Assembly (NCBI GenBank): GCA_016190245.1
Contig: JACPQY010000085.1
Coordinates: 35,095-99,094, forward strand
DNA: 64,000 bases
Source of the DNA: Nitrospirota bacterium
GTDB lineage: Bacteria > JACPQY01
Direction of reading: 5' to 3'
Shown: positions 1 through 54,877 of the stretch, in pieces
Numbering within the stretch: position 1 is the first letter of the stretch
Layout: every line of letters begins with the position of its first letter
Position numbers and translations under genes: made by a program
The notes under the pieces: generated by a model
What the model saw: only the letters and a program-made list of their open reading frames with translations
What the model was told of the DNA's origin: nothing
Database searches by the model: none

Positions 1-774
1 CGCGTTGATTCGGACCCGTTCGGATGACAGATCGCCGTCGGCCAGCCCCAGCGCGACGCAGCCCTTCATGGGGATCGAGAATCCGTTCGGGGTCACCCAG
101 TTGTCCATCACGACCATCTCCACCGGGAAGGCCGATTGCGCGCCTCCGGCCGCTGGATAGGCGGACACGCCGTTGAGCGTGCGCACTTTCACCACGCTGC
201 CGGCCGGCAGGTAGTGGGGTGAGGATGGCGCGCCTCGCAGTCCCAATGCTCCGTCGGCCCTCGGCTTCTCCTCCCTGGGTGGCGGCACCTGAATCATCTC
301 GATTGGAGGGATGTCGGAGGCCCGGGCGCCCGGTCGTCGACCTGCTTCCTCACCCCCCGCGCCGGCCGCCCGGACTGCCTCGACTACGCGCCCTTGGAGG
401 GCGGCCTGGCCGACCTGTATCTCATTGAGCTGCGCGGCAAAGCCTTGAAGAATCTCTGCCTTGGTCTTGTCCGACTTCTCAAGCGCCTGGAGGCGGCCAT
501 CAAGCCGCTTTCCCTCCTCGACTCGTTTCTCGATGTCCTGCCGGATCTTCTCGATCGCAAGACCGGTCGAGAACTCACCCATCTGGATGGGCGACTCATC
601 CCGCGTCTTCGTGACCGTCCGCCCAGCCGGGGCCTCGGTCAGGCGCGATCCTGTGTCTGCCGGCTTCTCCGACCGAAGCCACACGTACAGGACCAGTGCC
701 AGAATCAGGATGGCCGACACACCAACTATTTTTCGTTGCCTTGGAATGCTCTGCAACCGTTCACGCCAGCTCAT
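1..774 (-). CDS. traB: F-type conjugative pilus assembly protein TraB (VirB10-like), 3'-truncated by window edge
   Basis: Not in the ORF track because it has no stop in the window. My translation from ATG 774 (ATGA overlap with the traK stop): MSWRERLQSIPRQRKIVGVSAILILALVLYVWL (one TM), a coiled coil, then HYLPAGSVVKV..NGVSA..FPV..PNGF..MKGCVALGLADGDLSSERVRI, the characteristic TraB C-terminal motif. Confidence 0.85.
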   Translation of the reverse strand, partial: MSWRERLQSIPRQRKIVGVSAILILALVLYVWLRSEKPADTGSRLTEAPAGRTVTKTRDESPIQMGEFSTGLAIEKIRQDIEKRVEEGKRLDGRLQALEKSDKTKAEILQGFAAQLNEIQVGQAALQGRVVEAVRAAGAGGEEAGRRPGARASDIPPIEMIQVPPPREEKPRADGALGLRGAPSSPHYLPAGSVVKVRTLNGVSAYPAAGGAQSAFPVEMVVMDNWVTPNGFSIPMKGCVALGLADGDLSSERVRINA

Positions 775-1607
775 GGTTTCACCTCCCCACCCCCGGTCTC
801 GAACATCATGCGATCCACCACGAGATACCCCATCGTCTTCCTGGGCATCCCCTTGAAGGCCTCGATGGTCTCCGCCGGTTCCCTCGGCGCCAGGTGCTTG
901 TCCGTTATGGAGCCCAGAACCATGCCCCGGTAGTGCCACCCCTCAGGCGTCACGAGTTGCGGCTCGTTCGAGAGGTTTTCAATCTCGAGCACGAAGCCGC
1001 GGTTAGTCGGTCCCTCGTAGACACGCCTCGCGCGGTAGCGGATCACGTGGGGCTCCTCGAAAATGATCTTTCCGCCTCCGTCTTGAATCTCATAGCCGGG
1101 CACCGGTTGTTCCAACTTCATCGCGCCGAGAAGCATCAGCGCCTCCATCGGAGGCGTGATCGTTTGCGGCACCGGGGCCTGGAAGGTCTCGGGGACGAGG
1201 TGGACGGCGTCGTCTTCTCTCTGACCCTCCGTGGTCTCCAGAAGCTCCACCATGTAGGTCTGTCCTTTACTGTCGAACAGAAACAGCCGGTAGCGCTCGA
1301 ACGACAAGAGCGGCTTGATCAAGATGCCGTCCGGCGCCCGCAGGATCGAGAACGTCCTGCTGTCAGGATTGGAGAAGTTGCCCATCGGCCCCGGCAGTAC
1401 GATCTGTGTGGTTTGGGCCAGTGTGAGATAGACGATGACCGGACGACCGGGGGCCCATGGGACAGCCCGTCCCGCGTGGGCCGGTTGTGGACTCGCCAGC
1501 CCGAGCCCGATCACGATCGCGGCAACGCACATCGGCCGGAACGTGATGAGTGGTACGTGGTGAGTGATAGCAAACCAAACACTCTTGCATGTGACCGAAG
1601 CCTTCAT
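771..1607 (-). CDS. traK: F-type T4SS secretin-like protein TraK (VirB9-like)
   Basis: Signal peptide ending AHA; C-terminal GFVLEIENLSNEPQLV..LAP..T.GYLV resembles the TraK C-terminus; directly upstream of and coupled to traB; RBS-like AAGGGGG before ATG 1607. Confidence 0.65.
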   Translation of the reverse strand: MKASVTCKSVWFAITHHVPLITFRPMCVAAIVIGLGLASPQPAHAGRAVPWAPGRPVIVYLTLAQTTQIVLPGPMGNFSNPDSRTFSILRAPDGILIKPLLSFERYRLFLFDSKGQTYMVELLETTEGQREDDAVHLVPETFQAPVPQTITPPMEALMLLGAMKLEQPVPGYEIQDGGGKIIFEEPHVIRYRARRVYEGPTNRGFVLEIENLSNEPQLVTPEGWHYRGMVLGSITDKHLAPREPAETIEAFKGMPRKTMGYLVVDRMMFETGGGEVKP

Positions 1608-1720
1608 CTTGGTCCCCCTTTCCTTGTCCGCCTTTCTCCACGGATGCAGCCCCTTGTGTGGCCTCGCCGTCGCATCGCTCTTGTTGATGTCTAGATTGAG
1701 AATGGAGTCGCACCCGGCAG

Positions 1721-1791
1721 GAGATTGCTTCGTCGAAGACTTCTCGCAATGACGGCCGAGGGTGTCATTGCGAGCGACGCGAAGCAATCTC
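1721..1791. repeat. Imperfect long palindrome (GAGATTGCTTCG..CTCGCAATGAC / GTCATTGCGAG..GAAGCAATCTC), REP/RPE-like
   Basis: Two inverted half-units read directly; one half-unit recurs at 16037-16064. Confidence 0.8.
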
Positions 1792-1876: not shown

Positions 1877-3031
1877 TCACGCCGCCATCCGCTTGTTGAA
1901 ATACACGAGCCCGAAGCCCAGCAAGAGGATACAGAATCCCCGGTAGGCCCACGTGTCCCGGCCGATTTCCGCTTTCTTGGCCATGCACCCATTGTACAGT
2001 TCGGCATAGGCCCAGTCGGTCGCGTTTGCTTGGACAAAGTAGCCGGCGAATGAGTGGAGGGGATGAAGGTTCGCGTCGGTATCGGCCGCCGTCAGCCCGC
2101 CGATACATCCCTGGTCCGCCTGATGGGCCCGGTAGGCGTACCATGTGAGACCGCGTGCCGCAGCCACGGCCACCACGTAGAGGACCACGTTGACCAGGCC
2201 GGCCGGAAGCTGAACCAAGGCCGGCATGGCCACAAACGCCGCGGTGACCCGTCCGGTGTTCTCCCCCACCAGCCTCGCAGCCCAACCCGCGTCATGTTCA
2301 TCCTCGACCGGGGCGGTAGCCTCCAACAGGCCCCGGATTTCCTCCGGCGCCAGGCCCACCCCCCCCTCCTGAGCCGAGACCACCCCACGGGCGACCTCGC
2401 GCGCCGTGGCCCTCCTGACCGCATAGCGAGACCGCGACCCCTTCCAGGTGGTCACGTCGGTTTCGATTTGCGTGGCGTGAGCGGCGCAGGTCGTGCTCAC
2501 ACTCCCAACCTCAATCGAGCGATTCGCAAGATTCGCCTTGGCCGTGGTTTCGTCTCCCTCCATCAACTTCTCAAGAACCGAACCCACGATGCACTCGCTC
2601 CCGAACTGACGCGCCGCGGCGGCCTCGGCCGCATCGAGGACCGACTCGAAGTCTTCCGTCACCTTGGCCGCCAGGGGAAACTGAGTGGCGGGGGCGGTGA
2701 ACCCGGAGGCCTTCTTCAGGTCCCAGTCGTGAATGAGTCCCGTCGGGATATCAGCCAATGGCCGCACCACGGCCTCGAAGAGCGTCGAGGGATACCCTGT
2801 GCCCGACTTCTCCGCGCTCACGGCCACGGCCCAACCCAGGAGAATCTGGACCATCGCCAGGCCACCCATGAGCTGGCGCCCCTCACCGATCCTGCGGACG
2901 CCCCATAGGAACATCCCGATGCTTGTGAGCGCCGCCACGGCCAGGATGGCCCCATGAACCAAGTATTGGGCCACGAAATCCAGCCACGGCTGGATGAGCG
3001 CCGCCTCGAGGGTGAACGTGGTCCGGAACAT
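1877..3031 (-). CDS. Membrane protein, possibly TraG_N/VirB6-like
   Basis: 384 aa with N- and C-terminal hydrophobic helices; follows the TraU-like and TraH-like genes as traG does in F-type order; no diagnostic motif recognised. Confidence 0.4.
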   Translation of the reverse strand: MFRTTFTLEAALIQPWLDFVAQYLVHGAILAVAALTSIGMFLWGVRRIGEGRQLMGGLAMVQILLGWAVAVSAEKSGTGYPSTLFEAVVRPLADIPTGLIHDWDLKKASGFTAPATQFPLAAKVTEDFESVLDAAEAAAARQFGSECIVGSVLEKLMEGDETTAKANLANRSIEVGSVSTTCAAHATQIETDVTTWKGSRSRYAVRRATAREVARGVVSAQEGGVGLAPEEIRGLLEATAPVEDEHDAGWAARLVGENTGRVTAAFVAMPALVQLPAGLVNVVLYVVAVAAARGLTWYAYRAHQADQGCIGGLTAADTDANLHPLHSFAGYFVQANATDWAYAELYNGCMAKKAEIGRDTWAYRGFCILLLGFGLVYFNKRMAA

Positions 3032-3194
3032 GACCTAGTACGGCGTTAAGGAATTCCTGGAGCGGTTCCCTGCCACGTCGCCGTGCGGTAGCCCCGCTCT
3101 CCGTTCGAATGCACCAATAGGGGCGGGGCGTAAGTACCGTGTTGATGAGAACCACCCCATTCTCGATCTGCTCCCACTATTGCTCAACACGGTA

Positions 3195-4445
3195 TCAGAA
3201 CGGTCCCTTGTAGTTGAAGATCAGCTTCGCCACCGCCTCGAGGCGCTCGCGCAGCAACTGGAGGATCCACGCCTGCACGTCCGCATACGTGCTCTTCTTG
3301 ACCTTCTGGTCCTCGATCCATGCCTCCAGATCCACCCGCAGCCGCTCCCGCATCCGCCAGATCTGTTCGAGCATGATCGGCTGGATCCCGGCGCGCGCCT
3401 GGACGAAGCCCACCAGCGAAACCACAATCCGCGCCTCCCGCTGAACCGCCTCCGCCGCGAGGGCCCCGCGGAGCTTGGGACATTTGACCGTATCCTTGTG
3501 GGCCTCGTGGTAGACGACGGTGTCAATCGGGATGGGCTGGAGGTCGGGCAGATCCGTGCGCCATTGATACTGAGGCGGCGCAGGAAAGATCCCGCAGTCG
3601 GACCCCATGATCGTGTCCAGCACGCTGCCGCCCTCTTGAAGATTCTCAAGCCGCCCGTATAAGCCCTGGAAGTAGTAGGTGGGATTGTTGTTGGAATCGG
3701 GATAGTAGTCGGCGTTCTCGCCTTCGAGGATCAAGTGCGACACCATCCGGCCGTCTTCGAGCCTGCTGTCGCCCAAGTAGTTCCACACGAGGCCCCGGTA
3801 GGTGTCGTTCGTGAACAGCCTCGTCACCACCGAATCGTAGGCCGTGCCCGAACCCGTGGCACTCGGCAGTCCTGTCATCTCCTCGACAAACGGCTTGCCG
3901 CTGGTCGCATCTCTCCACTTGGGGTCCTTGTAGGCCTCCACGCACTTGGCAAAGATGTCCGGGTGATAGGCGGTGTAGTCGATGCCCCCCACCGTCACCC
4001 CTCTCCCCACGCACGTCGCGATCGCGTCGTACGCCGCGCGGTCGGAGACCAGCGTCGCATTCCCCGCGTGCGTCTCGATCGTCCGCCTCTGGAAGCCGTA
4101 GAGTTGGAAGTAGAGCGCCGCGACCGCCGGGAGCACATGCTCCATTCCGGGATTCTTGGTGATCAGGGATTGGGTATACGTGGCGGGGGGAGACTTCTCG
4201 ATCTCAAGCAAGACATCATATAGGAGTGCGCCCAGATCCACGTTCCCAGCAAAACCCTTGAGATCGGGCGGTGCGATCACGGCATAGGGAACCTGCTGCG
4301 ATGGCACGTTCGTCTTGTCGCGCCAGTTGTCGGTCAAATCCCCCTCGGAAGGCGGCCAGACAACTTGCTGCGCCTTCGCCTGCCCCCAACCCGCCAGTGT
4401 AGACGCAAGAACCGCCGCTGTGATGATTCCGTTGTTCAGTCGCAT
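3195..4445 (-). CDS. Secreted protein, possibly TraH-like (ICE PFL_4711-type)
   Basis: Signal peptide (AKA); segment PPATYTQSLITKNPGMEHVL resembles the P..iqranPglydlL motif of TraH-equivalent ICE proteins; overlaps the end of the TraU-like gene. Start could be 4472. Confidence 0.4.
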   Translation of the reverse strand: MRLNNGIITAAVLASTLAGWGQAKAQQVVWPPSEGDLTDNWRDKTNVPSQQVPYAVIAPPDLKGFAGNVDLGALLYDVLLEIEKSPPATYTQSLITKNPGMEHVLPAVAALYFQLYGFQRRTIETHAGNATLVSDRAAYDAIATCVGRGVTVGGIDYTAYHPDIFAKCVEAYKDPKWRDATSGKPFVEEMTGLPSATGSGTAYDSVVTRLFTNDTYRGLVWNYLGDSRLEDGRMVSHLILEGENADYYPDSNNNPTYYFQGLYGRLENLQEGGSVLDTIMGSDCGIFPAPPQYQWRTDLPDLQPIPIDTVVYHEAHKDTVKCPKLRGALAAEAVQREARIVVSLVGFVQARAGIQPIMLEQIWRMRERLRVDLEAWIEDQKVKKSTYADVQAWILQLLRERLEAVAKLIFNYKGPF

Positions 4446-7400
4446 ACGATCTTGTCCATCCTTTCTTTCCATTCGGGACTCTTGGCCGAGAACTTGGCCT
4501 TGACTTCCTCGCAGGCCTGGCGGCTGCCCTCCGCACGTTTGCCCGCCCGCTGCTTCCGGGTGGCCTCAGCGTCTTTCTTGGCCTCGTCCAACGCTTTCAT
4601 GTAGGGCGAATTGGGATCGGTGAGCTGCTGGTGTGTCGGACCGGGATCGGTCGGCTTGCCCATGCCGTAGCCCTGGCGCTTGAGGTATTCTTCCTTTGCC
4701 TTTCGCTCCAGTACGTCTCGGGCCTGATCCACGTTGCCCTGTGCGTCGTCGATCTCTTTCTGCCGCGGCTCCACCTTCTTGCGCACGTAGCGCCCCTCCG
4801 CGGCAGCCGCCTCCTCGGCCCTCGACACGCCCCCAGCCCGAACCTCCTCGCGGGCTACCTGCAACGTGCCGGAGGAGGCACCCGATCTCATGCGGGCCAC
4901 CGCCTCCAGAAGCTGAAGGAACTCCCACACCTCCGCACCCGTCGCCACCGTCCCCTTGAACACAGGCCCCGTGAACGAGGAGGACAGGGTCTCGAAGTCG
5001 GCGGCCATCGTCCCAAAGTCGCCCGATACCCCTTCCAACTCAGCCAAGAGGTTCCCCTGCCCCGCCGCCTTGCCCTTGCCCACCAACCCCTCCAAGGCAT
5101 CGGCCGCCTTGCCCAGAGCGTCGTGAATCGGGTTCAATGCGGCATACAACGTCCCCTTGGAAAACTTCCCCATCGCGTCGGACACTCGGATGAGGCCATC
5201 CGATGCCGTCCGCAAAGTCCCCTCGATGCCCGGCGGAGCGTCACGAAGTCCCCGCGCCCGATTCGCCATCACACCCAACCGGTCGCCCATCTGACGCAGG
5301 GCTACCGGCGAGAGAAAGGCCGCGGCGTACACCCGGTCTGCAAAGTCCCGGTCGAGATTGCGCAGCTTGTCAGGCAAGCTCCCCAATCCCACCGAGACAG
5401 CCTGCGAGGCACTCCCCACGCTCGCCTTCCGTCCCCCCGCCTTCTTCATCGCCCCCTGCGCGTCGGTCAACCACTTCTCGAACTCCACCTTCACCTCCGC
5501 AAATGCGATGAGCGCCTCCATCACCTCCTCGGGACTGCCGATGCTCGTGATGTCTCCTGCCTCCCGGAGCTTCCTCATCAACTTCTCCCCCCGATGCGTG
5601 AGCGCCCCCATGTCCTCCCACAACCCCTTGGGGACGCCCGTGCCCGGCGAGAAGAGCGCCTTCACGTCCACCTCCACGGGCTTCACCAAGTCCTTCACAA
5701 AGTCGGGACCCACCGCGTCGCGCAAGGCCAATGCCCGCGCGCGAATCCCCTGTCCCGTCAAGCCCGCCGCGGCGATGGAAGACTGCAACCCCTGGACCTC
5801 ATTCTGCCACCACTGAAGTTCGAGAGCCGGGAGTCGAGAGGCGGGAGCCGACAGGGACGACAGGATCCCGCTCAACATCGCCGAAGGATCGCCCAGCCTC
5901 CCCAAGTCCCCCGCCAGCGTCACAACGGGACTGACCTCGCCCAACTTCACATCCCCAAACTTGCGGATGAGGTCCGCCGTGTCGCGCGGGGGATTGGAAA
6001 TGAGGCGAACCGCGGCGCATGCGTAGTCGGCGTACGTGAGGTACCCCTCCAGCTTCGCGAGCCGCCGGTGCAGAAGATCCAGCTTCGTGTGTACGGTCTG
6101 CACGGGGGCGTGGACGGGCATGATGGTGCAGGCCTGCTCGGCCATGTGGGATAGCGGCGGCTTGAGGAGCACGGGAGGAATCCGTGACTCCACGGCCGCG
6201 ATCTTCGTCTTGACCAGGGAAGCACCGGGAATGTCTCCCGTCCCCATCCCGCAGGCCGAGAGGCCCGTGAGCGTCTTGCCGGCCTCGAGCGCGTGCCGCC
6301 CGATGTCCACCGCGCACTCGACGTCGTACACCCCGCTCTCCACGTCCGGATCGACCTGAAAGTGGGTCATCAACCCCTTCATGGCCGCATGAATCACCGT
6401 GGGACCGGTCTGCCCCGCCGCCTGCCTCACGATGGGCTCGATCTGCTGGAAGAGGCGGAGATACTGCTGCAACACCGCCACCATGGCGTGGATCTTCTCC
6501 TCGATCTTCTTCGCGAAATCGAGGACTTCCTTGGCGGATTGGTAAAGATTGCGGATCTGCTTGATGGCGTTGGAGATCGTGTAGACGTAGTCGGCAATGA
6601 TGGCCGGTCCAGCCGTCCCCAGTGATCCCGCTTCGGCACCAAGGTCCTGTGAAAGGCGCACAAAGAACCATGCCGTGTTCTTGAGATAGGTGTTCAGATC
6701 AAAAAGACACATCCGCTGGTGCTGATAGATTACGAAGAGGGCGCCCTCGCTCACGTTTCCCGTCCAATACTCCTGGCGATCCCATTGCTTCGGGTCGTAC
6801 CCGATCGGCACACACGAGTTCCAAGTTGCTCCGCCCGCGCCGGTGTGCACAAGCTGAATTGAAAGCCCATCCTGCTCATTCCAAGGGATGGAAAGCACAT
6901 CCGGGTCCAGCGGATCCAACTCATCCGCGCCCCGCCCGTCAATCCAACACCCGCCCCCGCTCGATGCTGCAAGCGGCGCCTCCCAGACACCCAGGCTGGC
7001 CCCGGCAAGCGCAAGTCTCCCCATCCCAAATCTCGGGTCGGCGTGTTTCAGCCGACCGGAACGCTCATGCAGGTTTCCCCAAGGGAGCAAACCGGGCTGG
7101 TTTACACCCTCCCAAAAGCGCACCGTATCTGCCGGATCACGAAAGATTGTGAATGTGGGCACGTGCTTCTTGAAACCGGGCAGCCACGATTTCTTGCAAC
7201 TGACGTCGGAGCAAACCTTCACTCCAAGCGCCTCCCCACACACCTCACACGTTGGCGTGCCCTTCTTGATCTTCTGCTCGCGCATGGGCAAGCCACCCTT
7301 CCAGCGGAAGAGGTCGAATTCCGAGAGATAGCAGACACTTGGCGAGGCCCATGCGTCTTTCCACGAAAGATTCATGTAGGCACCATGGGTTGCCAAACCC

Positions 7401-7972: not shown

Positions 7973-8481
7973 GGCGACCTTAGAGAAGCATAGTAGATTG
8001 CAAGACACTTGAAATCCTTGTGACCTGGGTCAACCAGTTCTGCGCATTCCGAAACACTAGTCAGATTCAACGAGATGTCTTCTTTGAAGAAAAGAGCACA
8101 CACCTCCTGATCGGTTCTGAAATTCAGCGCCTCGCTGCATCCTTCGACAGTGGGTACCAATCGGGGGATGCACTCAGCTACCTCAGGAGGGCCCGCCTTC
8201 AGCAGCCGAGCTCCTTGTGAAACAAGATCTGCCAGAGAAGCCTTGCATTCCTCCAACGTCTCGTTCCTACGTTGGAGTCCTTCAGGTTTGCAGGCGGCAG
8301 CCGCGGAGCATCGCCTATCCGCGACTTGCAGATTCGCCACTGTCCACCGCTCCCACAGTTCGTCCTTTGACGCCCCGCCTCCCCCATCCCCGCCCTCGTC
8401 CCCGCCGCAGCCCGGGAGCGTGAACAGTGACAAGTAAACGGTGAGCAGCAAGACCGTGAGATTCCGACAGATTCGATTCAT
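7969..8481 (-). CDS. 8-Cys lipoprotein, paralog L1
   Basis: Lipobox-like LPGC followed by a Gly-rich tether and CSAAAAC..TLEEC pattern; 8 Cys after the lipid Cys; visibly lower GC than flanks. Confidence 0.75.
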   Translation of the reverse strand: MNRICRNLTVLLLTVYLSLFTLPGCGGDEGGDGGGGASKDELWERWTVANLQVADRRCSAAAACKPEGLQRRNETLEECKASLADLVSQGARLLKAGPPEVAECIPRLVPTVEGCSEALNFRTDQEVCALFFKEDISLNLTSVSECAELVDPGHKDFKCLAIYYASLRSP

Positions 8482-8591
8482 GCCATTCGCTCCTTCCAAT
8501 TCAGCCTCCCCACACCCATCGTTTCCACCTCCCCCTCACGCAGCAGATCTGAATCCAGCGGATCGAACTCATCTGCCCGCGAAGAGGCTTT
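8478..8591 (-). pseudogene. 3' remnant of a gene truncated at the RAYT inverted repeat
   Basis: Frame KASSRADEFDPLDSDLL..ERMA* ends in an ATGA overlap with L1; ADEFDPLDSDLL resembles ADELDPLDPDVL in the TraU-like protein. Confidence 0.3.
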
Positions 8592-9642: not shown

Positions 9643-9704
9643 AAATCCGAAATCGCGAATCGAGAATCGGAAGACAAACGGGCAGGACGAGCCCACCCCA
9701 CTCG

Positions 9705-10495: not shown

Positions 10496-10512
10496 CGGCG
10501 CACCAACTCCCC

Positions 10513-44262: not shown

Positions 44263-44297
44263 CTCCACTCCCGCCCCACGCGATGCGGCAGGTCTCC

Positions 44298-44321: not shown

Positions 44322-44352
44322 CCAAGGCTTTGAACCGTGCTACAATGCCCCA

Positions 44353-44762: not shown

Positions 44763-47700
44763 TCATGGCAGATTGATCACGACGGTTGCGCTCAGCTTCA
44801 TGGCCGTCGTCCCATCCCCCACTTGGCCGCTCGTGTTCCCTCCCCAGCACTTGGCCGACCCGTCCGAGAGAGATGCGCACGTGAAGTCGCCTCCTCCCGT
44901 CAGCGCCACCACGCCGGAGAGGCCGGTCACGGACACCGCGGTGTTGCGGTCGAGGATCGAGCCGTCCCCGAGCTGGCCGCTGGCGTTGTCCCCCCAGCAT
45001 TTCGCGGCCCCACTGGCGTACCACGTGCAGCTATGGTTCTTGCCCGTCACGATCGACCGCACCGTGTTTGCCCCGCTCACCGCCGCCGGCGTGTTCCTCG
45101 TGGTGTTCGTCCCGTCCCCGAGCTGGCCATCCGTGTTCAGCCCCCAGCACTGTGCCGCCGAGGCAGTCGTGGCAAAACACGCGTGATCGCCTCCCGCGGC
45201 GATCGCCCTCACCCCCGTCGGCGAACCGAAGAGCGTCACGGGCGCGTTCTGGTTCACGTTGTCCCCGTTGCCGAGCTGCCCGCTCGCGTTGTAGCCCCAG
45301 CACCTCGGCGTTCCATCCGCGAGGACCGCGCAGGTGTGGTTGTCTCCCGCCGAGAGACCCACGGCCGTCGCGATCACGCTCACCGACACGGGCGTCAAAC
45401 TCTGGTTGTTCGTCCCATCCCCGAGCTGCCCGGACGTGTTCAGCCCCCAGCACTTGATCGTGCCGTCATAGATCAAGGCGCACGTGTGGCTGCCTCCGGC
45501 CGCGATCGCCGCGACCTTCGAGAGCGACGTGGCGCACGTCCCCACGTCACACACCGCCACGGGACTCGTCCCCTCCGTCGTCGAATTGTCCCCCAACTGG
45601 CCGTTCGTGTTCTTGCCGAAGCATTTCACGGTCCCACCGGCCACGAGAACGCACGTGTGTGAGCCTCCGCCCGCCACCGACAGGACATTCGCCAACGTCG
45701 AGATGTTGAGCGGCACGGAGCTGTTCGTCGTGCTCCCGATCCCGAGCTGACCGTTCCCGCCCAGCCCCCAGCATCGCACCTTCCCCTCCGTCACGACGGC
45801 GCACGCGTGACCGTCACCGCCGGTCATTGGCTCTTGGGCCCGCGTAGGGCGGGCTCCCCACCCCGACGCAAGCGCCCGGCTCGGCGAGATCAGCCCCACC
45901 GGCCCCTCGAGGACCGTCACCGCTCCCGGCTGGTACCAGCCGGATCCCGACACCCGCCCCAGGACGCCCGATCCGGCGTCATATCCCCAGCTCTGGAGCG
46001 TCCCGTCCGCCATGAGGGCAAAGCTGTGCTGACTGCCGTTCGAGGCCCCCGCCACCGACGTGAGGGTCAGCACCGCCCCCGACGACTTGCCGCAGGCATT
46101 GCCTGCACAGTCATCGGGCCCCGTGTTGTTCCCGTTCCCAAGCTGCCCGTAATAGTTCAGCCCCCAGCATCGCTCGGTCCCGTCCGACATCACCGTGCAG
46201 GCGTGGTCGGCACCCCCGCTATCCCCCGTCGCCACCCCCAGCGCACCCGTGCCCGCGCCGAACCCCAGGACGATGGCCGGCGTGTTGGACGACGACGTCC
46301 CCCCATTCCCCAACTGGCCGTTATTGCTTATTCCCCAGCACCTCGCCCCACCGTCCGAAAGCGTCGCGCACGTGTACCGATTCGCGGCCGCGATCGCCAC
46401 GACCTTCGAGAGCGAGGTCCCGCAATCGCTCACGTTGCACACCGCCACGGGGGTCATCTGGCAGGGTTGGCCGTTGCAGTTGCCGCTGGGGTTCCCCTGC
46501 CCGAGCTGGCCCTGGTCATCCCGGCCCCAGCACTTGGCGCCCCCTCCATCAACAGCCGCGCAGGCGTGCTCGGTCCCCGTGCTGATCGCCACGGAAGTGA
46601 AGCCCCCGGAGACCGTGGCCGGGGTGTAGCTGTCGGTCGTGCTCCCGATCCCGAGCTGGCCATAGTAGTTGTCCCCCCAGCAAACCGCCACCCCATTCAC
46701 CCGCAGCGCACACGCGTAAAAGCCGCCCACGCTGATCGCTATGGCGTCCGTCAGAGAGCCTTGCACCTGCATCGGCAGCTTCGAACACGCCACGGTGGAA
46801 CAAGTGCTCGGCCCCGTGCTGGTCCCGATCCCGAGCTGCCCCTGGTCGTTCCTCCCCCAGCACCAGACCGTGCCATCATGCTTGAGCGCGCAGGTCTCCT
46901 TCGCATCGTCGCCCCGCCCCGCGAAGACGGCTATCACACCCGTCAAGGACCCCGCACCGCAGCCGGTCGAGGCGCAGACGGTCACCGGCGTCGTCGAGGC
47001 CGTCGTCGAATCGTTGCCGAGTTGGCCGTAGGTATTGCCCCCCCAGCACTTCACGGTCCCGTCCCCCACCAGGGCGCAGGCGTAGGTGTCCGAGCCCGCT
47101 CCCCCCGAACTCATCCCCACCACACTCTGGGTGGAGTGCGTGTAGGCGCTCTTCTCCACCACGTTCGTGTCCACGTTGCCCGCCTCGTCCCGGGCCCGGA
47201 TCACGAAGAAATAGCGTGTCCCCACACTTAGGGGCGTGGCCGAATACGATACGGCACCGGCGCTCGTCGTGTAGGTGGCCGTGAAGCTCGAGGCGCACCC
47301 CGTGTAGGTCGTGCTCCAACATATCTGATAGACCATGTTGGCCGCCGAGGTGACGGAATCCGTCGCCGCGCTCCAGGTCAGGTTGATCTGGGTGGACGAC
47401 ACCGCACCCGCCGTGGTCGCCCCGCTGAAGGTCGGCGCCGTCCCGTCGTGCACATACGTGACCCCCGTCGAGGGGTTCGAGACATTCCCGGCCGCGTCGG
47501 TCGCCTTGGCCGTGATCGCGTTCGAGGCGTTCAGACTCACCGCCGTGGTCACGGTCACGGAGAACGCCCCGCCGGCATTGGCGCTCCCCGTCCCGATGAG
47601 CTCCCCGTCATCGAAGATCTGGATCGTGGCATTGGCCTCCGCGCTCCCCGTCACCGTGGGCTTGCTGTTGCTGCCCGGGCTCGCGGGACTCGTGGCCAGG

Positions 47701-49886
47701 CCCGTGGGCGCCCCCGGCGCCGTCGTGTCCACCAGGATCCCGTTCGAGGCCACCCATGCCCCGCTGTTCGCAGCCGTGTCGCGCGCCCGGACGCAGTTGT
47801 AGTACGTGGCGCTGTTGACGAGCGTGAGCCCCGTCGTGGTCTTGGCCGTCACCGCCCCCACGTTCACCGCCCCCACCGTCTCCCCACCGCAGGATGTCGA
47901 GAGGCTCAGGTTGTACTCGTAGCTCGCGATCCCGTTCGCGTCCGCGAACCCGCTCCAGGCCGCCGTCATGCTCGCCGTGTTGTTCTGGGCGACGACGTCC
48001 GTCGGTCCCCCGTCCGTGACCGCCCCGCCCGACGGGACCACGTTGTCGTGCACGTAGGTCAGGGTGTTCGAGACCGCCGACACGTTGCCCGCGTTGTCCG
48101 CGGCCTTGGCCGTGATCGCGTTCGAGGCGTTGCCGCTCACCGCCGTCGAGACCACAATCGAGAAGGACCCACCGCTCCCGACCGACCCGGTTCCGATAAG
48201 CGCCCCATCGTCGAAAATCTGCACCGCGATGTTCGCCTCCGTCGTCCCCGAGACCGTGGGCAGGAGGGAGTTGCCCGGGCTGGACGGGGTCAGGGAGCTT
48301 AGGGTCACCGCCGGCGCCGTCTTGTCGTTGGTGAGCGGGAGGGCCTGGCTCACGTTGCCGGCCGCGTCCACGGCCACGACGTAGATCTTGTCCGAGGCAT
48401 CCCCCTTGTTGTCGCCGATCCCCACGGACGCGAAAGACCCGCTCGCTTGAGCGGTCGTCTCCGCCAACTTGGACGTGAGGAGCGCGTCCTCGTAGATCTT
48501 CACCGTCGCCGAGGTCTCCACGGCGCCCGCCGAACCGCTCACTTGGTCCGACGTGCCCGGCGCGTTCATGGTGACCGTCACTTTCGCCACGTCCGGCGAG
48601 CCCGGCGCGGTCGTGTCCACCGTCCACGTGTGCGCCACGATGGCCGACTCGTTGCCGGCGGGATCTATGGCCTTGACCTGGAGCGTGTGGGAACCGTCGG
48701 CAAGACCGGCCAACGCATAGGGCGAGGTGCAGGCCGAGAAAACTCCGCCGTCGAGCGCACAATTGGTCCCACAATTGAGCTCGCTGCACGAGAACGTGAA
48801 CGAGGCGCTGTTGGAGGCCACGATCGCGCCGGGACCCCCCGTCACGGTCGTTGTGGGCGCCGCCGTGTCAATCGTCCACGTGTAGCTGACCGGTGTGGAA
48901 TCGGCCACGCCGTCCGCCGAAACACCCCGCGCTTGGAACGTGTGCTTGCCCTGGGGCAGGCCCTCGTGGAGGCTGGGCGACTTGCAGTCGGCGAACCCCG
49001 CGCCGTCCAGATTGCACTGCGTGGAGACACCCGTGGTCGTGAACCGGAATGTGGCCGAGGTCGAGTTGGTCAGCGCAGGCGGCTTCGCCTGGAGGCTCGT
49101 CTCGGGCTCGGAGCCCGCGGCCACCGTGGGCGGGGTGATGACCGCGCCCGTGACCGGGTCCACCAGAGTCGTCCCCGCAGTGGTCGTCTGGCCTGAGGAA
49201 ATGGCGCCCTGGAACGCGTCCGTGAGGGTGGATGAGGCCTGCGTCACCTGCTCAGCCGTGGGCTTGCTGAGCGCGTTCTGGGGATCCGTGCCCAGGATCA
49301 GCTCGATGAAGTTTGCAATGGTGTCTCCATCGTCATCTGCGATGACCACGCCCGAGGCGTCGAGCAGAATGAGAACGTCGGAGCCGGAGAAATCGATCAC
49401 ACCGGTCGCGGTGAGAATGAGAGTGCCGCTTTTGTCGATCACATAGACCTCGAAGGTCACCTGGGAGGCTTGGCGGCGCGGGCTGCCTCTGACACCCGCG
49501 GCATCGAGGGCCACTTCCTCAGGCAGTGCGAGCGACAGCGCAGCCCCCGAGTCTGATTCCGCCATCGTCAGGGCCAAGCCCTCACCCACGGTGCGACCGT
49601 TCACCGAGATCGTGGCCGTGCCGTCGCGCGCCTTCACGGCGCCCGCCACTTCAACAGCGACGGGAATGGCGATCGTAAGCGTTTCCTCTTCGCCCGATCC
49701 CTTCTTCTTGCAGCCAGGGCCGGCCACGAGAAGCAGGCACAAAGCTGAAAGCAACAAGCGAACGAAAGATGGAACGTGGTTGGACGGATGAGACGAACGC
49801 AGCATGTGACTCCCCTCCTCACTCATGCGGGACGACAACATGGGACCAGAGGTACCCCTTTCACTCGCCACCCTCTGAAACCCCAC
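44763..49886 (-). CDS. Giant surface lipoprotein: Ig-like/FN3 stalk plus RCC1/BLIP-II repeats (adhesin 2, paralog of 25158-30491)
   Basis: Same domain string and extensive DNA similarity to adhesin 1; different N-terminus (GPGC lipobox-like); start may be near 49806. Confidence 0.9.
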   Translation of the reverse strand: MGFQRVASERGTSGPMLSSRMSEEGSHMLRSSHPSNHVPSFVRLLLSALCLLLVAGPGCKKKGSGEEETLTIAIPVAVEVAGAVKARDGTATISVNGRTVGEGLALTMAESDSGAALSLALPEEVALDAAGVRGSPRRQASQVTFEVYVIDKSGTLILTATGVIDFSGSDVLILLDASGVVIADDDGDTIANFIELILGTDPQNALSKPTAEQVTQASSTLTDAFQGAISSGQTTTAGTTLVDPVTGAVITPPTVAAGSEPETSLQAKPPALTNSTSATFRFTTTGVSTQCNLDGAGFADCKSPSLHEGLPQGKHTFQARGVSADGVADSTPVSYTWTIDTAAPTTTVTGGPGAIVASNSASFTFSCSELNCGTNCALDGGVFSACTSPYALAGLADGSHTLQVKAIDPAGNESAIVAHTWTVDTTAPGSPDVAKVTVTMNAPGTSDQVSGSAGAVETSATVKIYEDALLTSKLAETTAQASGSFASVGIGDNKGDASDKIYVVAVDAAGNVSQALPLTNDKTAPAVTLSSLTPSSPGNSLLPTVSGTTEANIAVQIFDDGALIGTGSVGSGGSFSIVVSTAVSGNASNAITAKAADNAGNVSAVSNTLTYVHDNVVPSGGAVTDGGPTDVVAQNNTASMTAAWSGFADANGIASYEYNLSLSTSCGGETVGAVNVGAVTAKTTTGLTLVNSATYYNCVRARDTAANSGAWVASNGILVDTTAPGAPTGLATSPASPGSNSKPTVTGSAEANATIQIFDDGELIGTGSANAGGAFSVTVTTAVSLNASNAITAKATDAAGNVSNPSTGVTYVHDGTAPTFSGATTAGAVSSTQINLTWSAATDSVTSAANMVYQICWSTTYTGCASSFTATYTTSAGAVSYSATPLSVGTRYFFVIRARDEAGNVDTNVVEKSAYTHSTQSVVGMSSGGAGSDTYACALVGDGTVKCWGGNTYGQLGNDSTTASTTPVTVCASTGCGAGSLTGVIAVFAGRGDDAKETCALKHDGTVWCWGRNDQGQLGIGTSTGPSTCSTVACSKLPMQVQGSLTDAIAISVGGFYACALRVNGVAVCWGDNYYGQLGIGSTTDSYTPATVSGGFTSVAISTGTEHACAAVDGGGAKCWGRDDQGQLGQGNPSGNCNGQPCQMTPVAVCNVSDCGTSLSKVVAIAAANRYTCATLSDGGARCWGISNNGQLGNGGTSSSNTPAIVLGFGAGTGALGVATGDSGGADHACTVMSDGTERCWGLNYYGQLGNGNNTGPDDCAGNACGKSSGAVLTLTSVAGASNGSQHSFALMADGTLQSWGYDAGSGVLGRVSGSGWYQPGAVTVLEGPVGLISPSRALASGWGARPTRAQEPMTGGDGHACAVVTEGKVRCWGLGGNGQLGIGSTTNSSVPLNISTLANVLSVAGGGSHTCVLVAGGTVKCFGKNTNGQLGDNSTTEGTSPVAVCDVGTCATSLSKVAAIAAGGSHTCALIYDGTIKCWGLNTSGQLGDGTNNQSLTPVSVSVIATAVGLSAGDNHTCAVLADGTPRCWGYNASGQLGNGDNVNQNAPVTLFGSPTGVRAIAAGGDHACFATTASAAQCWGLNTDGQLGDGTNTTRNTPAAVSGANTVRSIVTGKNHSCTWYASGAAKCWGDNASGQLGDGSILDRNTAVSVTGLSGVVALTGGGDFTCASLSDGSAKCWGGNTSGQVGDGTTAMKLSATVVINLP

Positions 49887-49998
49887 TCTGGCCCAGGTGA
49901 CTTGCGACTTGTGATTTCCATAGAATATGGCATCTTATTTGTCAAGTTAGCTCACCTTTTGGACCCTTCCAAAAGCGCGGGAAGGATGGTGATGGTTG

Positions 49999-50421
49999 AT
50001 GGATGATCGGAGCAAGCGGCGGAGACGCCACCCGCCTCGGACCGTGACGGTCAAACCCACTGAACTGGGCCTTCGGCTCGGCGCCCGCATCAGGGCGTTG
50101 CGCGAGCGGGGCGGGGTCACGCAGGTGCAGCTTGCGGAACGCGCAAGCATCGGCATCGAGACCGTCAGCCGCCTCGAGCGGGGCATCGAGAACCCCACGA
50201 TCGGGATCCTCGAGACGGTCTGCCGGGCGCTGAACGTGGACATCCACGAATTGTTCGAGCGGGCGTATTCGGTTGAGGAGTACATCCGGAAGCAGGAGGT
50301 GCGCCAGATCGCCGAGAGGCTCGGGGGGGCCACCCCTGCCGAGCTTGCCGCCTTCCGCACCCTGGCCAATGGGATCCGTACGCGGGGCTCGAAGCCATAC
50401 CGGCAACGGCGCTCGCGGTAG
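49999..50421 (+). CDS. XRE/Cro-CI family HTH regulator
   Basis: LGARIRALR..TQVQLAERASIGIETVSRLERG..NPT..LE.VC.AL; divergent from the adhesin operon. Confidence 0.9.
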   Translation: MDDRSKRRRRHPPRTVTVKPTELGLRLGARIRALRERGGVTQVQLAERASIGIETVSRLERGIENPTIGILETVCRALNVDIHELFERAYSVEEYIRKQEVRQIAERLGGATPAELAAFRTLANGIRTRGSKPYRQRRSR

Positions 50422-50500
50422 AGTCCAGCCCCGCAGAATCCCCCGTTCCCATCTTTTTCAGGCCCTCTGAGCAACCCCATATCATTTGCCCCTATTAACA

Positions 50501-50529
50501 TTAGACTCCTGAGACCCGCGTTTTGTTCC
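50501..50529 (-). promoter_or_regulatory. ECF-sigma-type promoter, copy 3 (convergent with the XRE gene)
   Basis: GGAAC-N18-GTCTAA. Confidence 0.55.
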
Positions 50530-50562: not shown

Positions 50563-50962
50563 TCACTGAGCCACCGCGGCCACCTGCACCGGAGTGGCCG
50601 ACTGGGTGGTGCCTTCATCGCCCAGTTCGCCGTGGTCGCTGTCCCCCCAGCACCGAGCACTCCCGTCCGACAAGACAGTGCAGGTGTGCAGATTCCCCGC
50701 CGCAATGCCCACAGCCGATGAAAGTCCCACAACCGGGGCAGCAATGGGGAAACTGGTCAACTCAATCAACTTGGCAAACTGGTAAGATGGGACCATGGCA
50801 CCAGTGAGAGCCCCCGTTCCCAACTGGCCGACCACGTTGCCACCCCAACACCGAACCGTCCCATCCGAAATGAGCGCGCAACTGTAGTCGCTGCCCACGG
50901 CGATTGCCTTCGCACGGGAAACGCCCGCGACCGTGGCCGGCACTTTGGAGTACGTCCGCAGG
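50563..50962 (-). pseudogene. 5'-truncated RCC1-repeat gene remnant
   Basis: Two RCC1 repeats (YSCALISDGTVRCWG, HTCTVLSDGSARCWG) in a frame that begins at the RAYT inverted repeat without a proper start. Confidence 0.7.
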
Positions 50963-51698
50963 GAAAAGGGGACATTCCTATTTTTCACGGCAGCAGCCTC
51001 GGGCGACCCCGCGGCCGAAGGCTGGACTCCAACCCCAGATGCGCTGCGGTCACGAGCACCCAGTCCCGGCGACCGAACGGAGTTCCCTTGTTTACACATG
51101 TGCGCACGCGATCCAACTCCCCAGGCGCGAACGGCGTGTTGACCCAATCCGCCCAGCTGGCGGGCCACACCACTGGACCTCCATCCAGCTCGATGTGGTT
51201 TCGGACGCCCAGACGAACGCCGCTGCTGGACCACTCCCACTCACTGGCCCTCCTGACCAAGCCCGCCCGAACCGGGTTCCGCTCGATATAGCGAGCCGCG
51301 ACAAGAAGATGCCCGTCCTGCTGAATCGGAAAGGCCTTGAACCGGCCCTGCCAAATCCGGCCGCTCGTACCGTAATGCTTGTTGTACCGGCAGACGTGTG
51401 TCGTGAGCAGCCAGTGCATGTAGCGGCTCAGGTCGTCATCACCGTGAGGCCAGAGCAGGAGATGAAAATGATTTGGCATCAGGCAATACGCCAACAATCG
51501 CATGCCCACGCGAGCCCCAGCCTCTCTGAGGAGTTCAACAAAAGCCTGGTAATCGTCGCAATTGTGGAAAATCTCGCGGCGACCGTTTCCGCGATTGATC
51601 ACGTGGTAGCAGATGTCACCCACGCAGGCCCGTGAGGTTCGAGGCATCAGGATCGCTCTACTCCGCGTCTTGTCGAAAAATAGGAATGTCCCCTTTTC
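50963..51698 (-). mobile_element. RAYT-type element with perfect 24-bp terminal inverted repeats
   Basis: GAAAAGGGGACATTCCTATTTTTC (50963-86) and its exact reverse complement (51675-98). Confidence 0.8.
50985..51647 (-). CDS. REP-associated tyrosine (HUH/Y1) transposase
   Basis: YHVINRGN..AYCLMPNHFHLL..GRIWQGRFKA..YIERNPVRAG..WSS. Confidence 0.92.
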   Translation of the reverse strand: MPRTSRACVGDICYHVINRGNGRREIFHNCDDYQAFVELLREAGARVGMRLLAYCLMPNHFHLLLWPHGDDDLSRYMHWLLTTHVCRYNKHYGTSGRIWQGRFKAFPIQQDGHLLVAARYIERNPVRAGLVRRASEWEWSSSGVRLGVRNHIELDGGPVVWPASWADWVNTPFAPGELDRVRTCVNKGTPFGRRDWVLVTAAHLGLESSLRPRGRPRLLP

Positions 51699-54700: not shown

Positions 54701-54721
54701 AGCGAGCGACCCCCTCTTCAT
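51704..54721 (-). CDS. FG-GAP/VCBS-repeat lipoprotein
   Basis: AVAC lipobox; many D.(D/N)GDG..D repeats. Confidence 0.85.
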   Translation of the reverse strand: MKRGSLAVLLALAVACEQAQEAPIGPAITVTGPSEVRNGDRVVLTLDLGLSGLAPQEGSVQADFSAVDTGYAADAVTIQALPDGRYEVGYILSQKNTNPDGTYPVRLVVRVGGAGTFEVRETYALRLINTIPQAGNIRVASDSSKVSAFSGVGTLLAFEINANSPLLFRGVELEVEGSDSAALGAVTRVFLYQDVDGDHAVSEGDIKLGEIAPQPTGEGKFRLRLVREGEGEEISLSGGATGFVIAVEADCAGPSLSGRSLTLKLTEDGVKLRGPKGEKPDFGGLPLTIEVKGVRPLERLWTTDLGIYPSGEARATGTDVNLDGREELMMVSAASSRLWLLEAPTLTRLATHLDRLDLDVGAPEQVVYFDVDSDGVRDAILTAAGLRGPYIALSSRVDSNGRPFAGKEHPVRENPGTLLMPAEWTDVDADGLYDFVGVDLRTATILTAKGRYDATKGLLLTPLASTRTGLSGVIGVAAVDYDQDGVTELVFGTASLLEGALNVFDSPKKDGRYEFVRRESGLPPLTEILGADLDGDAAPEIIALSESELRILEMEPEGLFQTPTIQEGLDAPERPVIGHLNTDGIEDLVFLENGGAVIRSMLISAALKPIGMVQTTVTGSAASAFGPAESLAMADLDGNGTSEVVALTSEKLAVYRQSSGHLSTAFVTDPQPDPVAVGLISERGRVARVHVSDLANKKIYAYGLGSVGNLLGVVDTLTTTSAGSSLGAGPLTGGTVEDLAVLLDEGSVLLVRGDTYQSIASLSTEKNGLALTAADLDGDGRLDLAHVIPAKDKVTWFLNSGGAFTARSATTLPDPEGQLFLDVDGDGKKDLLAIHPITSSLSIALGDPATGSYGAPMALKLPGVPSALAAGDTDGDGKSEVIVGTHSGHLLFYNPAPGSAPPITLLRSREIEAPILALQQADLDADGRGDLLAVVGAGGRRGKGDELMLLKSLGGGRYCRPFFESVASGAHELKLGDLDGDGAPDAVVAGRADRAVEAYRNTLRD

Positions 54722-54848
54722 CCCATTACTCCCTGGCCCGGATCGGCGCGGCGGCAGACCTTCTCCGCACCCACAACTTCGAGAATGCTCCCGTGCAGGC
54801 AGCCCCTCTTGGAAGGTCCGATGCGCATAACTAGTCCCTCTATAGTTA

Positions 54849-54877
54849 TTAGACCCTTGGTGGCTACCTTCTCTTCC
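54849..54877 (-). promoter_or_regulatory. ECF-sigma-type promoter, copy 4 (diverged spacer)
   Basis: GGAAG-N18-GTCTAA upstream of the FG-GAP gene; ATAACTA..TAGTTAT inverted repeat adjacent. Confidence 0.45.

Follow-up and report, generated by a model that had tools for sequence, protein, structure and literature searches.

We analysed a 64,000-nt stretch of a Nitrospirota bacterium genome (the window; bases 35095-99094 of the 132,860-bp contig C79 of assembly GCA_016190245.1) and find in it, and just to its left, the core genes of an F-like type IV secretion system (T4SS). These genes are set among genes for giant surface lipoproteins, and no recognisable DNA-transfer gene accompanies them. 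We tentatively read the locus as a host-owned, chromosomal, coupling-protein-less and very divergent F-type T4SS that would serve pilus formation, adhesion or two-step export. A first-pass annotation, made from the letters of the window alone, had proposed a contact or adhesion machine rather than a plain integrative and conjugative element (ICE); this idea is the best fit to the tests reported here, although the absence of DNA-processing genes on which it leans is only suggestive.

The source assembly (G000) comprises 3.29 Mb in 86 contigs and is 85% complete. It was compared with G001 (same family, other genus; 4.7 Mb, 97% complete), the sole same-family genome compared; all remaining genomes returned as relatives share the domain only. 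A third organism is represented by L043, a 12.4-kb metagenome contig (run SRR22387949, GC 58.9%). Coordinates are those of the window except in the left flank, where they are given as C79, and contigs of G001 are named as such.

An F-like secretion core on a single strand

The core and pilin-associated genes are as follows.

1-939, minus strand: TraB (VirB10-like); Pfam TrbI E 2.8e-18, best NCBIfam model NF010289 (F-type TraB) E 6.8e-19
771-1841 (longest open reading frame, ORF), minus strand: TraK (VirB9/secretin-like); TraK_C E 3.2e-6, 27.7 bits against a cut-off of 28.5
18392-19075, minus strand: TraE (VirB8-like); PF05309 E 2.2e-9, above cut-off
19592-19930, minus strand: TraL (VirB3-like); PF07178 E 1.5e-8, above cut-off, and TIGR02762 E 3.6e-6
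23001-23603, minus strand: candidate TraA/VirB2-type pilin (C-terminal ~80 aa); sub-threshold matches to TrbC/VirB2 (E 0.009) and TraA (E 0.004)
23536-25275, minus strand: 193-aa protein and 327-aa beta-barrel-like outer-membrane protein, upstream of the pilin gene
C79:34229-34672, just left of the window, same strand as TraB: TraV; PF09676, 23.1 bits against a cut-off of 21

Together with TraC (VirB4) in the left flank, TraL, TraE, TraK, TraB, TraV and the candidate pilin span about 31 kb on one strand. Searches with profile hidden Markov models (HMMs) support the first-pass assignments of traL and traE at 18-24 kb and of traK and traB below 1.6 kb. TraK_C stays 0.8 bit under its cut-off, and the call is corroborated by orthologues of 43-44% identity that adjoin TraB in G001 (contig C43) and in L043; the true start of TraK is probably near 1607. 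The complete TraB has 454 aa and runs 425 nt beyond the left end of the window. No gene at 18-24 kb scores as TraV, where a traV-like gene had been noted; the real one follows TraB in the left flank. Downstream of TraB come TraV, one long ORF in which an IVP gene is run together with that for a 440-aa lipoprotein, a further IVP gene, TraC and g22, a conserved gene for a 199-aa membrane protein, and the operon ends after TraC and g22 in both G000 and G001.

TraC matches P-loop_TraG (E 6.7e-38) and the F-type N-terminal domain PF11130 TraC_F_IV (E 2.5e-18, above cut-off), and its Walker A (GxGKS) and Walker B (DEAW) motifs are intact and invariant. Its best model is TIGR02746, TraC-F-type (E 4.7e-92; 309 bits, under the 567-bit equivalog cut-off). 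The best NCBIfam models for TraC, TraB and TraL are TraC-F-type, F-type TraB and TraL_TIGR, all with scores below their equivalog cut-offs, and the system is therefore F-like but very divergent.

The product of 23001-23603 may be a pilin, judging by its C-terminal 80 residues, in which a leader is followed by two hydrophobic segments in the typical pilin layout. A paralogue lies at C78:70364-70600, behind the same promoter-like motif (see below). The earlier pilin call keeps its support from layout, while its profile matches are only sub-threshold (E 0.004-0.009). The TraE-K-B-V locus on G001 contig C29 has, in its upstream part, homologues of the 193-aa and 327-aa proteins in unchanged order; the 327-aa protein has a C-terminal Phe.

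Absence of DNA-transfer genes, and relatives of the locus

The first-pass annotation saw no relaxase, coupling protein, integrase or att/tRNA site at the right boundary, and this holds well beyond the window: for integrase and att site over the 133-kb contig and, for coupling protein and relaxase, over the assembled genome. No coupling protein was found in G000 by PF12696, by PF02534, by tblastn with a coupling-protein-like ATPase of G001, or by jackhmmer with that ATPase and F TraD. The relaxase models PF03432, PF08751, PF07514 and PF03389 gave no match above cut-off in G000 or G001, MOB V, T, B and C being untested. Tyrosine recombinases (PF00589) are absent from C79, C63 and C71, serine recombinases and DDE transposases not having been searched genome-wide. 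There is no tRNA in the window or within about 30 kb of the locus (the nearest, tRNA-Pro, is ~32 kb to the right), no att site was found on the 133-kb contig, and the locus holds no oriT-type accessory genes. Annotation of the left flank, proposed as a check on the first reading, yielded TraC and TraV and no coupling protein, relaxase or integrase.

C79 is chromosomal, with glnA, accA-like and mutase genes and a tRNA aboard, and the locus occupies it from about 27.6 kb to about 89.8 kb. Its large genes flanking the locus are ordinary metabolic or envelope genes: past g22 on the left come GGDEF-FHA, a nitrilase-type gene, agmatine deiminase, FapA and GlnA, and to the right of the FG-GAP gene that ends the locus a TetR gene is followed by radical-SAM/glycosyltransferase genes. 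The GC content of the locus is 64.2% against 64.6% for the genome, and its tetranucleotide distance is only mildly raised (87th-96th percentile). An Rfam scan of the window matched no family.

Orthologous modules occur in G001 on short contigs (C43 and C37), in a different context. TraC is 73-75% identical between G000 and G001, and flanking housekeeping proteins show a similar identity (radical-SAM 69%, deiminase 63%), which fits co-divergence of the system with its host; envelope parts diverge faster between the genera (38-47% identity). All T4SS ORFs are intact after this genus-level divergence. Outside this group no TraC is more than about 29% identical, the nearest ones being from Verrucomicrobiota, Silvanigrella and other metagenome-assembled genomes, and the loci of these lack the accessory genes described below.

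G000 also carries paralogous modules, 22-55% identical and hence old duplicates. The one on C63 (L037, C63:80001-100000) consists of two small ORFs, genes for a 1237-aa TraU-domain protein and for proteins of 416 and 390 aa, TraB, TraK and TraV, and lies directly upstream of mraZ-rsmH-ftsI-murE. It also encodes a 231-aa protein with a weak TraK_C match; TraB precedes TraK in it, the reverse of the usual order, and TraC, TraL, TraE and pilin are absent. An apparent TraC fragment at C63 proved to be a short low-complexity match, and an apparent TGA-interrupted TraB an alignment crossing the stop between two intact genes. A partial module on C71/C48 follows uvrA, and further partial modules are at C29 and C31. 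G001 has a second F-like locus (L016-L017, C20:30797-61509) with TraL, a weak TraH, TraF, a TraC of 39% identity, a short weak-TraU protein and the coupling-protein-like ATPase; several uncharacterised proteins of 390-990 aa are encoded there as well, and a matching TraE-K-B-V set is on contig C29.

These data bear on the explanation that the locus is an ICE, present or recent, whose T4SS brings about mating and DNA transfer, with the adhesins as mating-pair stabilisers or cargo; its coupling protein, relaxase and integrase would then be hidden in the 15% of the genome that was not assembled, lie at another site, or have diverged beyond recognition. Almost all known F-type T4SSs are conjugative (PMC12857230), and conjugation-type systems do exist in the lineage, as the coupling-protein-like ATPase, TraF and weak TraH/TraU of G001 contig C20 indicate; that coupling protein, however, was easily detected and has no homologue in G000 by HMM, tblastn or jackhmmer. 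The relaxase is undetectable in G001 too, so that the searches are possibly blind, whereas the lack of integrase, nearby tRNA and att site applies to 133 kb of contig. The locus context differs between the two genomes, and the system, present in several copies, abounds in transposase, toxin-antitoxin and REP elements; yet its composition matches the genome, its identity to G001 tracks that of housekeeping genes, being neither much higher nor lower, its ORFs are intact after genus-level divergence, and its paralogous modules sit inside core gene neighbourhoods. On balance, we consider an ICE unlikely.

Giant TraU-like proteins and a conserved accessory module

The following genes form two TraU-domain modules with their partners.

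1877-3031, minus strand: 384-aa multi-pass membrane protein, directly upstream of TraK
3195-4472, minus strand: 425-aa secreted partner of the 1190-aa protein; paralogues on C63 and C31
4436-8008, minus strand: 1190-aa protein; TraU-like N-domain of ~330 aa and a long, mostly helical extension
7969-8499, minus strand: 176-aa Cys-rich lipoprotein; lipobox, 10 Cys; heads the TraU-domain module
36335-37663, minus strand: 442-aa secreted partner of the 1175-aa protein; follows the TraU-domain gene
37744-41271, minus strand: 1175-aa protein; TraU-like N-domain and Cys-rich extension (36 Cys)
41201-42467, minus strand: two Cys-rich lipoproteins of 198 and 218 aa; lipoboxes, 9 Cys each; head the second TraU-domain module

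The first-pass annotation had singled out a separation of about 17 kb between traE and traK. The distance is 16.5 kb; the gap is real, and the dispersal that it seemed to signify is reduced by its content, about 10 kb being mostly cassettes and the remaining ~6.6 kb a conserved, T4SS-linked module (1877-8499) with the genes for the Cys-rich lipoprotein, the 1190-aa, the 425-aa and the 384-aa membrane protein. In G001, the 12.4-kb contig C43 consists in its entirety of genes for the lipoprotein (homologous to the 176-aa protein and at the same position), a 1190-like protein (41% identity), a 394-aa protein at the position of the 425-aa one, a 384-like protein, TraK, TraB, TraV, IVP, lipoprotein and IVP. 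L043 keeps the accessory module contiguous with TraK-B-V-C, in the order lipoprotein, 1202-aa protein (1175-like), 442-like, 384-like, a 263-aa protein with a weak thioredoxin fold, TraK, TraB, TraV, IVP and the start of TraC (66% identity). Since the four-gene module is kept in both, it is a part of the system and not a spacer. Homologues of the 384-aa protein hold the same position on G000 contig C63, G001 contig C43 and L043. A VirB6-like role for it is conjectural; a VirB6-like fold gained no support, the AlphaFold2 (AF2) model being all-helical but of low confidence (pLDDT 64), with a best Foldseek match in the PDB of E 0.38.

The 1190-aa and 1175-aa proteins have the collinear motifs PxYxVEVV, (E/R)VHVW and YFSExDxxxW in common, which recur in G000 paralogues (C63, C71, C29), in G001 and in L043 and are invariant across eight family members. 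F TraU has the counterparts YWEP...DVT, HVHWYKYP and AYLSEIDPTW. A profile of the eight N-domains ranks F-plasmid TraU first among 2603 sequences (E 1.8e-4; next decoy E 1.4). Additionally, the N-domain of the 1175-aa protein is homologous to the gene directly after the second TraC of G001, on contig C20 (tblastn E 1e-10); this short family member has a weak match to Pfam TraU (E 8.8e-4). Other approaches gave less: the 1175-aa family gave no hhalign signal with F TraU as a single sequence, a search with the isolated TraU-like N-domain alone found nothing, and the matches in a tblastn search of plasmids for diverse TraU were saturated by IncF copies. Homology of the N-domain of the giants to TraU appears moderately supported by these comparisons.

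The TraU-domain giants exist in at least 5 copies, with extensions of 700-900 aa. The 1175-aa family has only three other relatives among 1.84 billion representative proteins, and a PDB sequence search with the 1190-aa protein returned nothing meaningful. Their partners travel with them: the 442-aa protein has a paralogue at C71/C48 and an orthologue in L043 (43% identity), each directly after a TraU-domain gene, and the TraU-domain genes of C71 and L043 are preceded by homologues of the 198-aa and 218-aa lipoproteins. A TraH-like identity of the 425-aa and 442-aa proteins was considered and rejected, their family profiles giving no signal against F TraH or the weak TraH match of G001.

Surface lipoproteins linked to the secretion genes

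The large surface proteins of the locus are as follows.

20161-22971, minus strand: 936-aa lipoprotein; Ig-like modules common to the RCC1 giants, BNR-like region
25158-30491, minus strand: RCC1-A, 1777-aa ORF, lipoprotein; WD40_RLD E 9e-182, RCC1, Big_6 and Big_13, lipobox LALSC
30488-33229, minus strand: 913-aa lipoprotein with a vWA/MIDAS-like region; partial NCBIfam matches to CglD (E 1.6e-20) and MIDAS adhesin (E 1.9e-14)
33226-36237, minus strand: 1003-aa ORF (~820 aa as a lipoprotein), known only beside T4SS genes
44763-49886, minus strand: RCC1-B, 1707-aa ORF, lipoprotein; 68% identical to RCC1-A over 1450 aa
51704-54721, minus strand: 1005-aa FG-GAP beta-propeller lipoprotein; FG-GAP_3 E 2.1e-40, lipobox; right end of the gene train

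Pfam confirms the RCC1 giants and the FG-GAP protein that the first pass had named. Its vWA protein retains the partial CglD and MIDAS adhesin matches, and Pfam found no match in the 913-aa sequence; a PDB sequence search with it returned nothing meaningful either. Lipoboxes are present on at least 12 proteins of the locus. The described minus-strand gene train with ATGA/GTGA overlaps exists in part: such overlaps occur at three sites (33226-33229, 30488-30491 and 18392-18395), but plus-strand genes (PIN, three retropepsin-like and helix-turn-helix, HTH) and repeats split the train into several units, so it is not one operon.

Three of these lipoproteins, the 1003-aa, the vWA/MIDAS-like and a propeller protein, form a triad that adjoins T4SS genes in both genomes. 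In the window the triad genes are coupled by 4-nt overlaps and lie between the second TraU-domain module and the pilin/TraL unit. On G001 contig C37, tandem copies of the 1003-aa gene, a 913-like gene (47% identity; two genes upstream of TraC) and an NHL-propeller lipoprotein gene lie directly upstream of TraC. The propeller is RCC1 in G000 and NHL in G001; the N-terminal part of the NHL protein is common to RCC1-A, and the propeller head has therefore been exchanged while the base stayed the same. A search of 5.8 billion protein clusters returned no homologues of the 1003-aa protein other than the four to five tandem copies on G001 contig C37. Its fold was not recovered (AF2 pLDDT 43, unusable; profile and single sequence against the PDB without meaningful match). 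Further linkage is seen for the 936-aa protein, a similar Ig gene following TraV in the TraE-K-B-V locus on G001 contig C29, and for RCC1 proteins, one of 2433 aa adjoining the T4SS locus on G001 contig C20. That such linkage is found again in a second genus speaks for a functional tie between the T4SS and adhesin lipoproteins; it falls short of proof because only two genomes are involved and RCC1-A and RCC1-B are a local duplicate.

Two observations concern the triad proteins themselves. In an alpha/beta region of the 1003-aa family (33226-35691; in G001, L013 = C37 114-12504), the pattern DTHG...(about 80 aa)...FNGSC is invariant and gives the impression of resembling the His-Cys dyads of clan-CD (caspase/gingipain-like) peptidases. 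In G001, the tandem 1003-aa copies and the vWA-like and NHL genes carry a near-identical lipoprotein signal peptide.

It is improbable, in our view, that the T4SS is real and its adhesin neighbourhood meaningless, with giants and cassettes having simply gathered where the chromosome tolerates them. Other contigs do encode giant lipoproteins of the RCC1, Kelch and FG-GAP kinds, but the 1003-aa and vWA-like genes occur only beside T4SS genes, in two genera, and show translational coupling with a propeller-lipoprotein gene in each genome. The local duplication of RCC1-A and RCC1-B counts as a single event, and cassettes separate FG-GAP and RCC1-B from the T4SS genes, within a train already divided into several transcription units by plus-strand genes and intergenic repeats; yet in G000 the triad is flanked by the TraU-domain module and the pilin/TraL unit, in G001 it immediately precedes TraC, Ig-domain lipoproteins follow TraV on G001 contig C29, an RCC1 giant follows the T4SS locus on contig C20, and one promoter-like motif precedes both the pilin unit and RCC1-B.

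IVP genes and a promoter-like motif

19059-19805, minus strand: four-helix-bundle IVP (PF05635, Avd-like); Pfam E 8.4e-31; between TraL and TraE
24135-24164, minus strand: promoter-like motif, 18 nt upstream of the 193-aa/pilin/936-aa/TraL unit
50500-50529 (RCC1-B) and 12457-12486, minus strand: the other window copies of the motif

IVP genes number four in the genome, three of them inside the T4SS locus. Besides the copy in the window they are at C79:32277-34007, 31642-32142 and 18176-18592, with further ones in G001 (L025, contig C43; 10249-10851) and in L043 (11279-11692). Their operon positions are conserved, one following TraV in 3/3 organisms. PF05635 is related to Avd, the accessory protein of diversity-generating retroelements (DGRs; PMC10053308). 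Pfam scans of the locus ORFs found no reverse transcriptase, and the role of the IVPs may therefore be unrelated to DGRs.

The 30-nt promoter-like motif, GGAACAAAAC-N5-CTCAGGAGTCTAAT, has 13 genome sites against 0 in shuffles. Outside the window, G000 carries it at C63:99520-99549, C78:70680-70709, C50:20339-20368, C53 (three), C55, C29, C38 and C79:1074. Nearly all copies point to a nearby downstream gene on the same strand, and among the genes preceded are the pilin unit, RCC1-B, the C63 module and the second pilin gene on C78. Its spacing resembles that of an extracytoplasmic-function (ECF) sigma promoter, and the motif may define a regulon joining the dispersed T4SS modules and giant surface proteins.

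Cassettes and selfish elements in the locus

Between 8.6 and 18.4 kb the sequence is mostly a patchwork of selfish elements with a few envelope-type genes, and similar elements recur further right.

8596-9612, minus strand: RAYT-type IS200-like Y1 transposase fused to a DnaA-C HTH; Y1_Tnp E 7.9e-13, Bac_DnaA_C E 4e-6
9613-17183: cassette region; TRL-like ORF, REP-like repeats, retropepsin-like, PIN, TPR and YidD-like genes, two small membrane proteins and an outer-membrane-protein-like lipoprotein (Pfam)
12602-12991, plus strand: retropepsin-like gene; Pfam Asp_protease_2 / RVP_2
13326-13742, plus strand: PIN toxin; Pfam
17184-18395, minus strand: HNH-associated-repeat ORF; Pfam HNH_repeat E 1.7e-18
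43732-44109 and 44251-44730, plus strand: two retropepsin-like genes, paralogues of 12602-12991
49996-50421, plus strand: Xre-type HTH regulator; Pfam HTH_31 E 3.9e-15
50563-51647, minus strand: truncated RCC1 fragment overlapped by a second RAYT (IS200-like); RCC1 repeats, Y1_Tnp E 1.6e-15

The first RAYT has at least 6 paralogues elsewhere in the genome, and the repeat families D4 and D15-D20 of the cassette region recur at 42.6-44.7 kb. REP-like intergenic repeats, 80-98% identical, lie at unit boundaries (18079-18163 / 30364-30448; 12047-12286 / 42593-42859) and yield spurious N-terminal extensions in the longest ORFs, RCC1-A and the HNH-repeat ORF among them. The 5' part of the HNH-repeat ORF translates an 85-nt repeat (family D19, 93% identical) whose second copy is at 30364-30448, and the 79%-identical N-termini of RCC1-A and this ORF, at first taken as a shared signal, are that translated intergenic repeat instead. 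The three retropepsin-like genes, whose proteins are 69-71% identical, are oriented against the gene train; a conserved sequence with GTGCTACAATG precedes each of them, and more distant paralogues are on five other contigs. The RCC1 fragment at 50563-51647 is start-less and is the only clear pseudogene of the locus. Outside the window, a candidate IscB/Cas9-like nuclease is encoded by a 946-aa ORF (L004:2651-5491 = C79:115651-118491, minus strand), which combines an RRXRR domain (PF14239) at the N-terminus with an HNH nuclease domain in the middle.

A possible TraC-powered contact or display organelle

Since the core parts are in place and DNA-processing parts are undetectable, a TraC-powered complex or pilus is the most economical mechanism. 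An envelope-spanning core with a conjugative-type pilus would be powered by TraC alone and would recruit no substrate from the cytoplasm. Such a machine might be an adhesive or retractile pilus organelle or, alternatively, a two-step exporter or display platform for Sec-exported periplasmic lipoproteins. The neighbouring 1003-aa, vWA/MIDAS-like, RCC1/NHL propeller, 936-aa Ig and FG-GAP proteins are, from their conserved linkage, likely contact partners or cargo. The scattered gene order would reflect accessory modules interleaved with the core and the insertion of RAYT/REP, toxin-antitoxin and retropepsin cassettes. A more elaborate version is a longer shot, and we hold it doubtful: one VirB4 core would serve several scattered TraK-B-V and TraU-giant modules, one of which adjoins the cell-division cluster, and these would display or fire a variable set of lipoprotein adhesins made up of a 1003-aa protein, a vWA-like protein and swappable propeller heads, the Avd-like proteins being new conserved subunits or regulators. 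A role in predation or kin recognition, also suggested in the first pass, is speculation.

Several points weigh against a host-owned system without DNA transfer. TraW, TrbC, TraN, TraF, TraH and TraG had no match in Pfam and NCBIfam scans of the locus ORFs, no VirB6 equivalent emerged, and the pilin is a candidate only. The promoter-like motif is absent from the G001 contigs examined and from L043. Selfish elements abound in the locus and one of its RCC1 genes is truncated. Giant lipoproteins are common elsewhere in the genome, so that some of the adjacency could be coincidence. The position is not conserved: the first pass had proposed to check relatives for the locus at the same chromosomal site, and in G001 the orthologues of the two flanks are on different large contigs, so no empty site can be read. 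The system is known from three sequences (G000, G001 and L043), all metagenome-derived, which makes for thin conservation statistics. A coupling protein or relaxase could lie in the missing 15% of the genome, and the more canonical F-like locus of G001 also has no recognisable relaxase, so relaxase searches may be blind in this lineage; with the completeness of 85%, the absence of DNA-processing genes is therefore suggestive and not proof.

That the T4SS, lacking a coupling protein, takes up or releases DNA in the manner of Helicobacter ComB or the gonococcal genetic island (GGI) is very improbable: the core is comparable to ComB, which has VirB2-4 and VirB6-10 homologues without VirD4 and VirB11 (PMC12857230), and the 440-aa lipoprotein between TraV and TraC weakly matches the DNA-uptake secretin HofQ (E 2.5e-4), but that match is far below cut-off, neither the locus nor its immediate surroundings showed a ComEC, ComH or ComF-type gene, and adhesin-type and Cys-rich lipoproteins and TraU-domain giants belong to no known DNA-uptake T4SS.

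Comparison with known systems

The closest likeness is to the F-type mating-pair formation systems (MPF-F) of F, pED208 and SXT/R391, which match in TraL, E, K, B, V and a TraC with PF11130, in the lack of VirB11 and in the order K-B-V...C; a TraU-like domain and a pilin-like gene are present as well. Unlike them, the locus has no TraD, TraI or oriT-type accessory genes, and TraW, TrbC, TraN, TraF, TraH and TraG are undetected; its TraU domain is fused to 700-900 aa in at least 5 copies, and IVP genes stand inside the operon. To our knowledge, retraction has been shown for the F pilus and for no other T4SS pilus. The Rickettsiales amplified genetic elements (RAGEs) of Orientia and Rickettsia likewise present multi-copy F-type tra clusters, found at multiple places in the chromosome and accompanied by transposases. 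They also have integrases, TraD and TraI, are inserted at tRNA genes and are largely pseudogenised, whereas here the ORFs are intact, no integrase, tRNA, TraD or TraI was found, and the paralogues are old (22-55% identity).

Among T4SSs without a coupling protein, adhesive variable pili (Bartonella Trw), two-step export (Ptl, Brucella) and DNA uptake (ComB) have been described, and the well-studied examples, Ptl, Brucella VirB, ComB and Trw, are all P-type (PMC12857230). Bartonella Trw is, like the present system, chromosomal and conjugation-derived, lacks VirD4 and has multiplied envelope or surface components, and is proposed to make adhesive pili rather than to translocate (PMC12857230). 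It is P-type (R388-like) with tandem VirB2/VirB5 amplification, whereas here the system is F-type, TraK-B-V modules and TraU giants are amplified over several contigs, and the adhesins are separate lipoproteins. Bordetella Ptl and Brucella VirB also lack a coupling protein, and the candidate substrates here carry Sec/lipoprotein signals and would therefore enter from the periplasm; those two systems are P-type and compact, and the locus has no evident toxin-like substrate. That the T4SS exports the lipoproteins encoded beside it is conjecture. Trw-like and Ptl-like readings are the most attractive because lipoprotein adhesins are abundant and envelope modules amplified.

If the locus were an ICE after all, it would carry a relaxase/coupling system that current HMM sets miss. 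Under the host-owned reading it offers new parts that can be tested, namely the giant TraU-domain fusions, the operon-fixed Avd-like proteins and the lipoprotein triad with interchangeable propeller heads, and a handle on the cell-surface biology of a deep-branching lineage known from few metagenome bins. The review cited above lists no coupling-protein-less F-type system, its non-conjugative F-type example being DNA release by the gonococcal GGI (PMC12857230). If our reading is true, the present system would be the first coupling-protein-less F-type T4SS, with a new accessory repertoire, and a chromosomal F-type core without DNA-transfer genes, joined to adhesin modules, would show that the F lineage, too, can be exapted.

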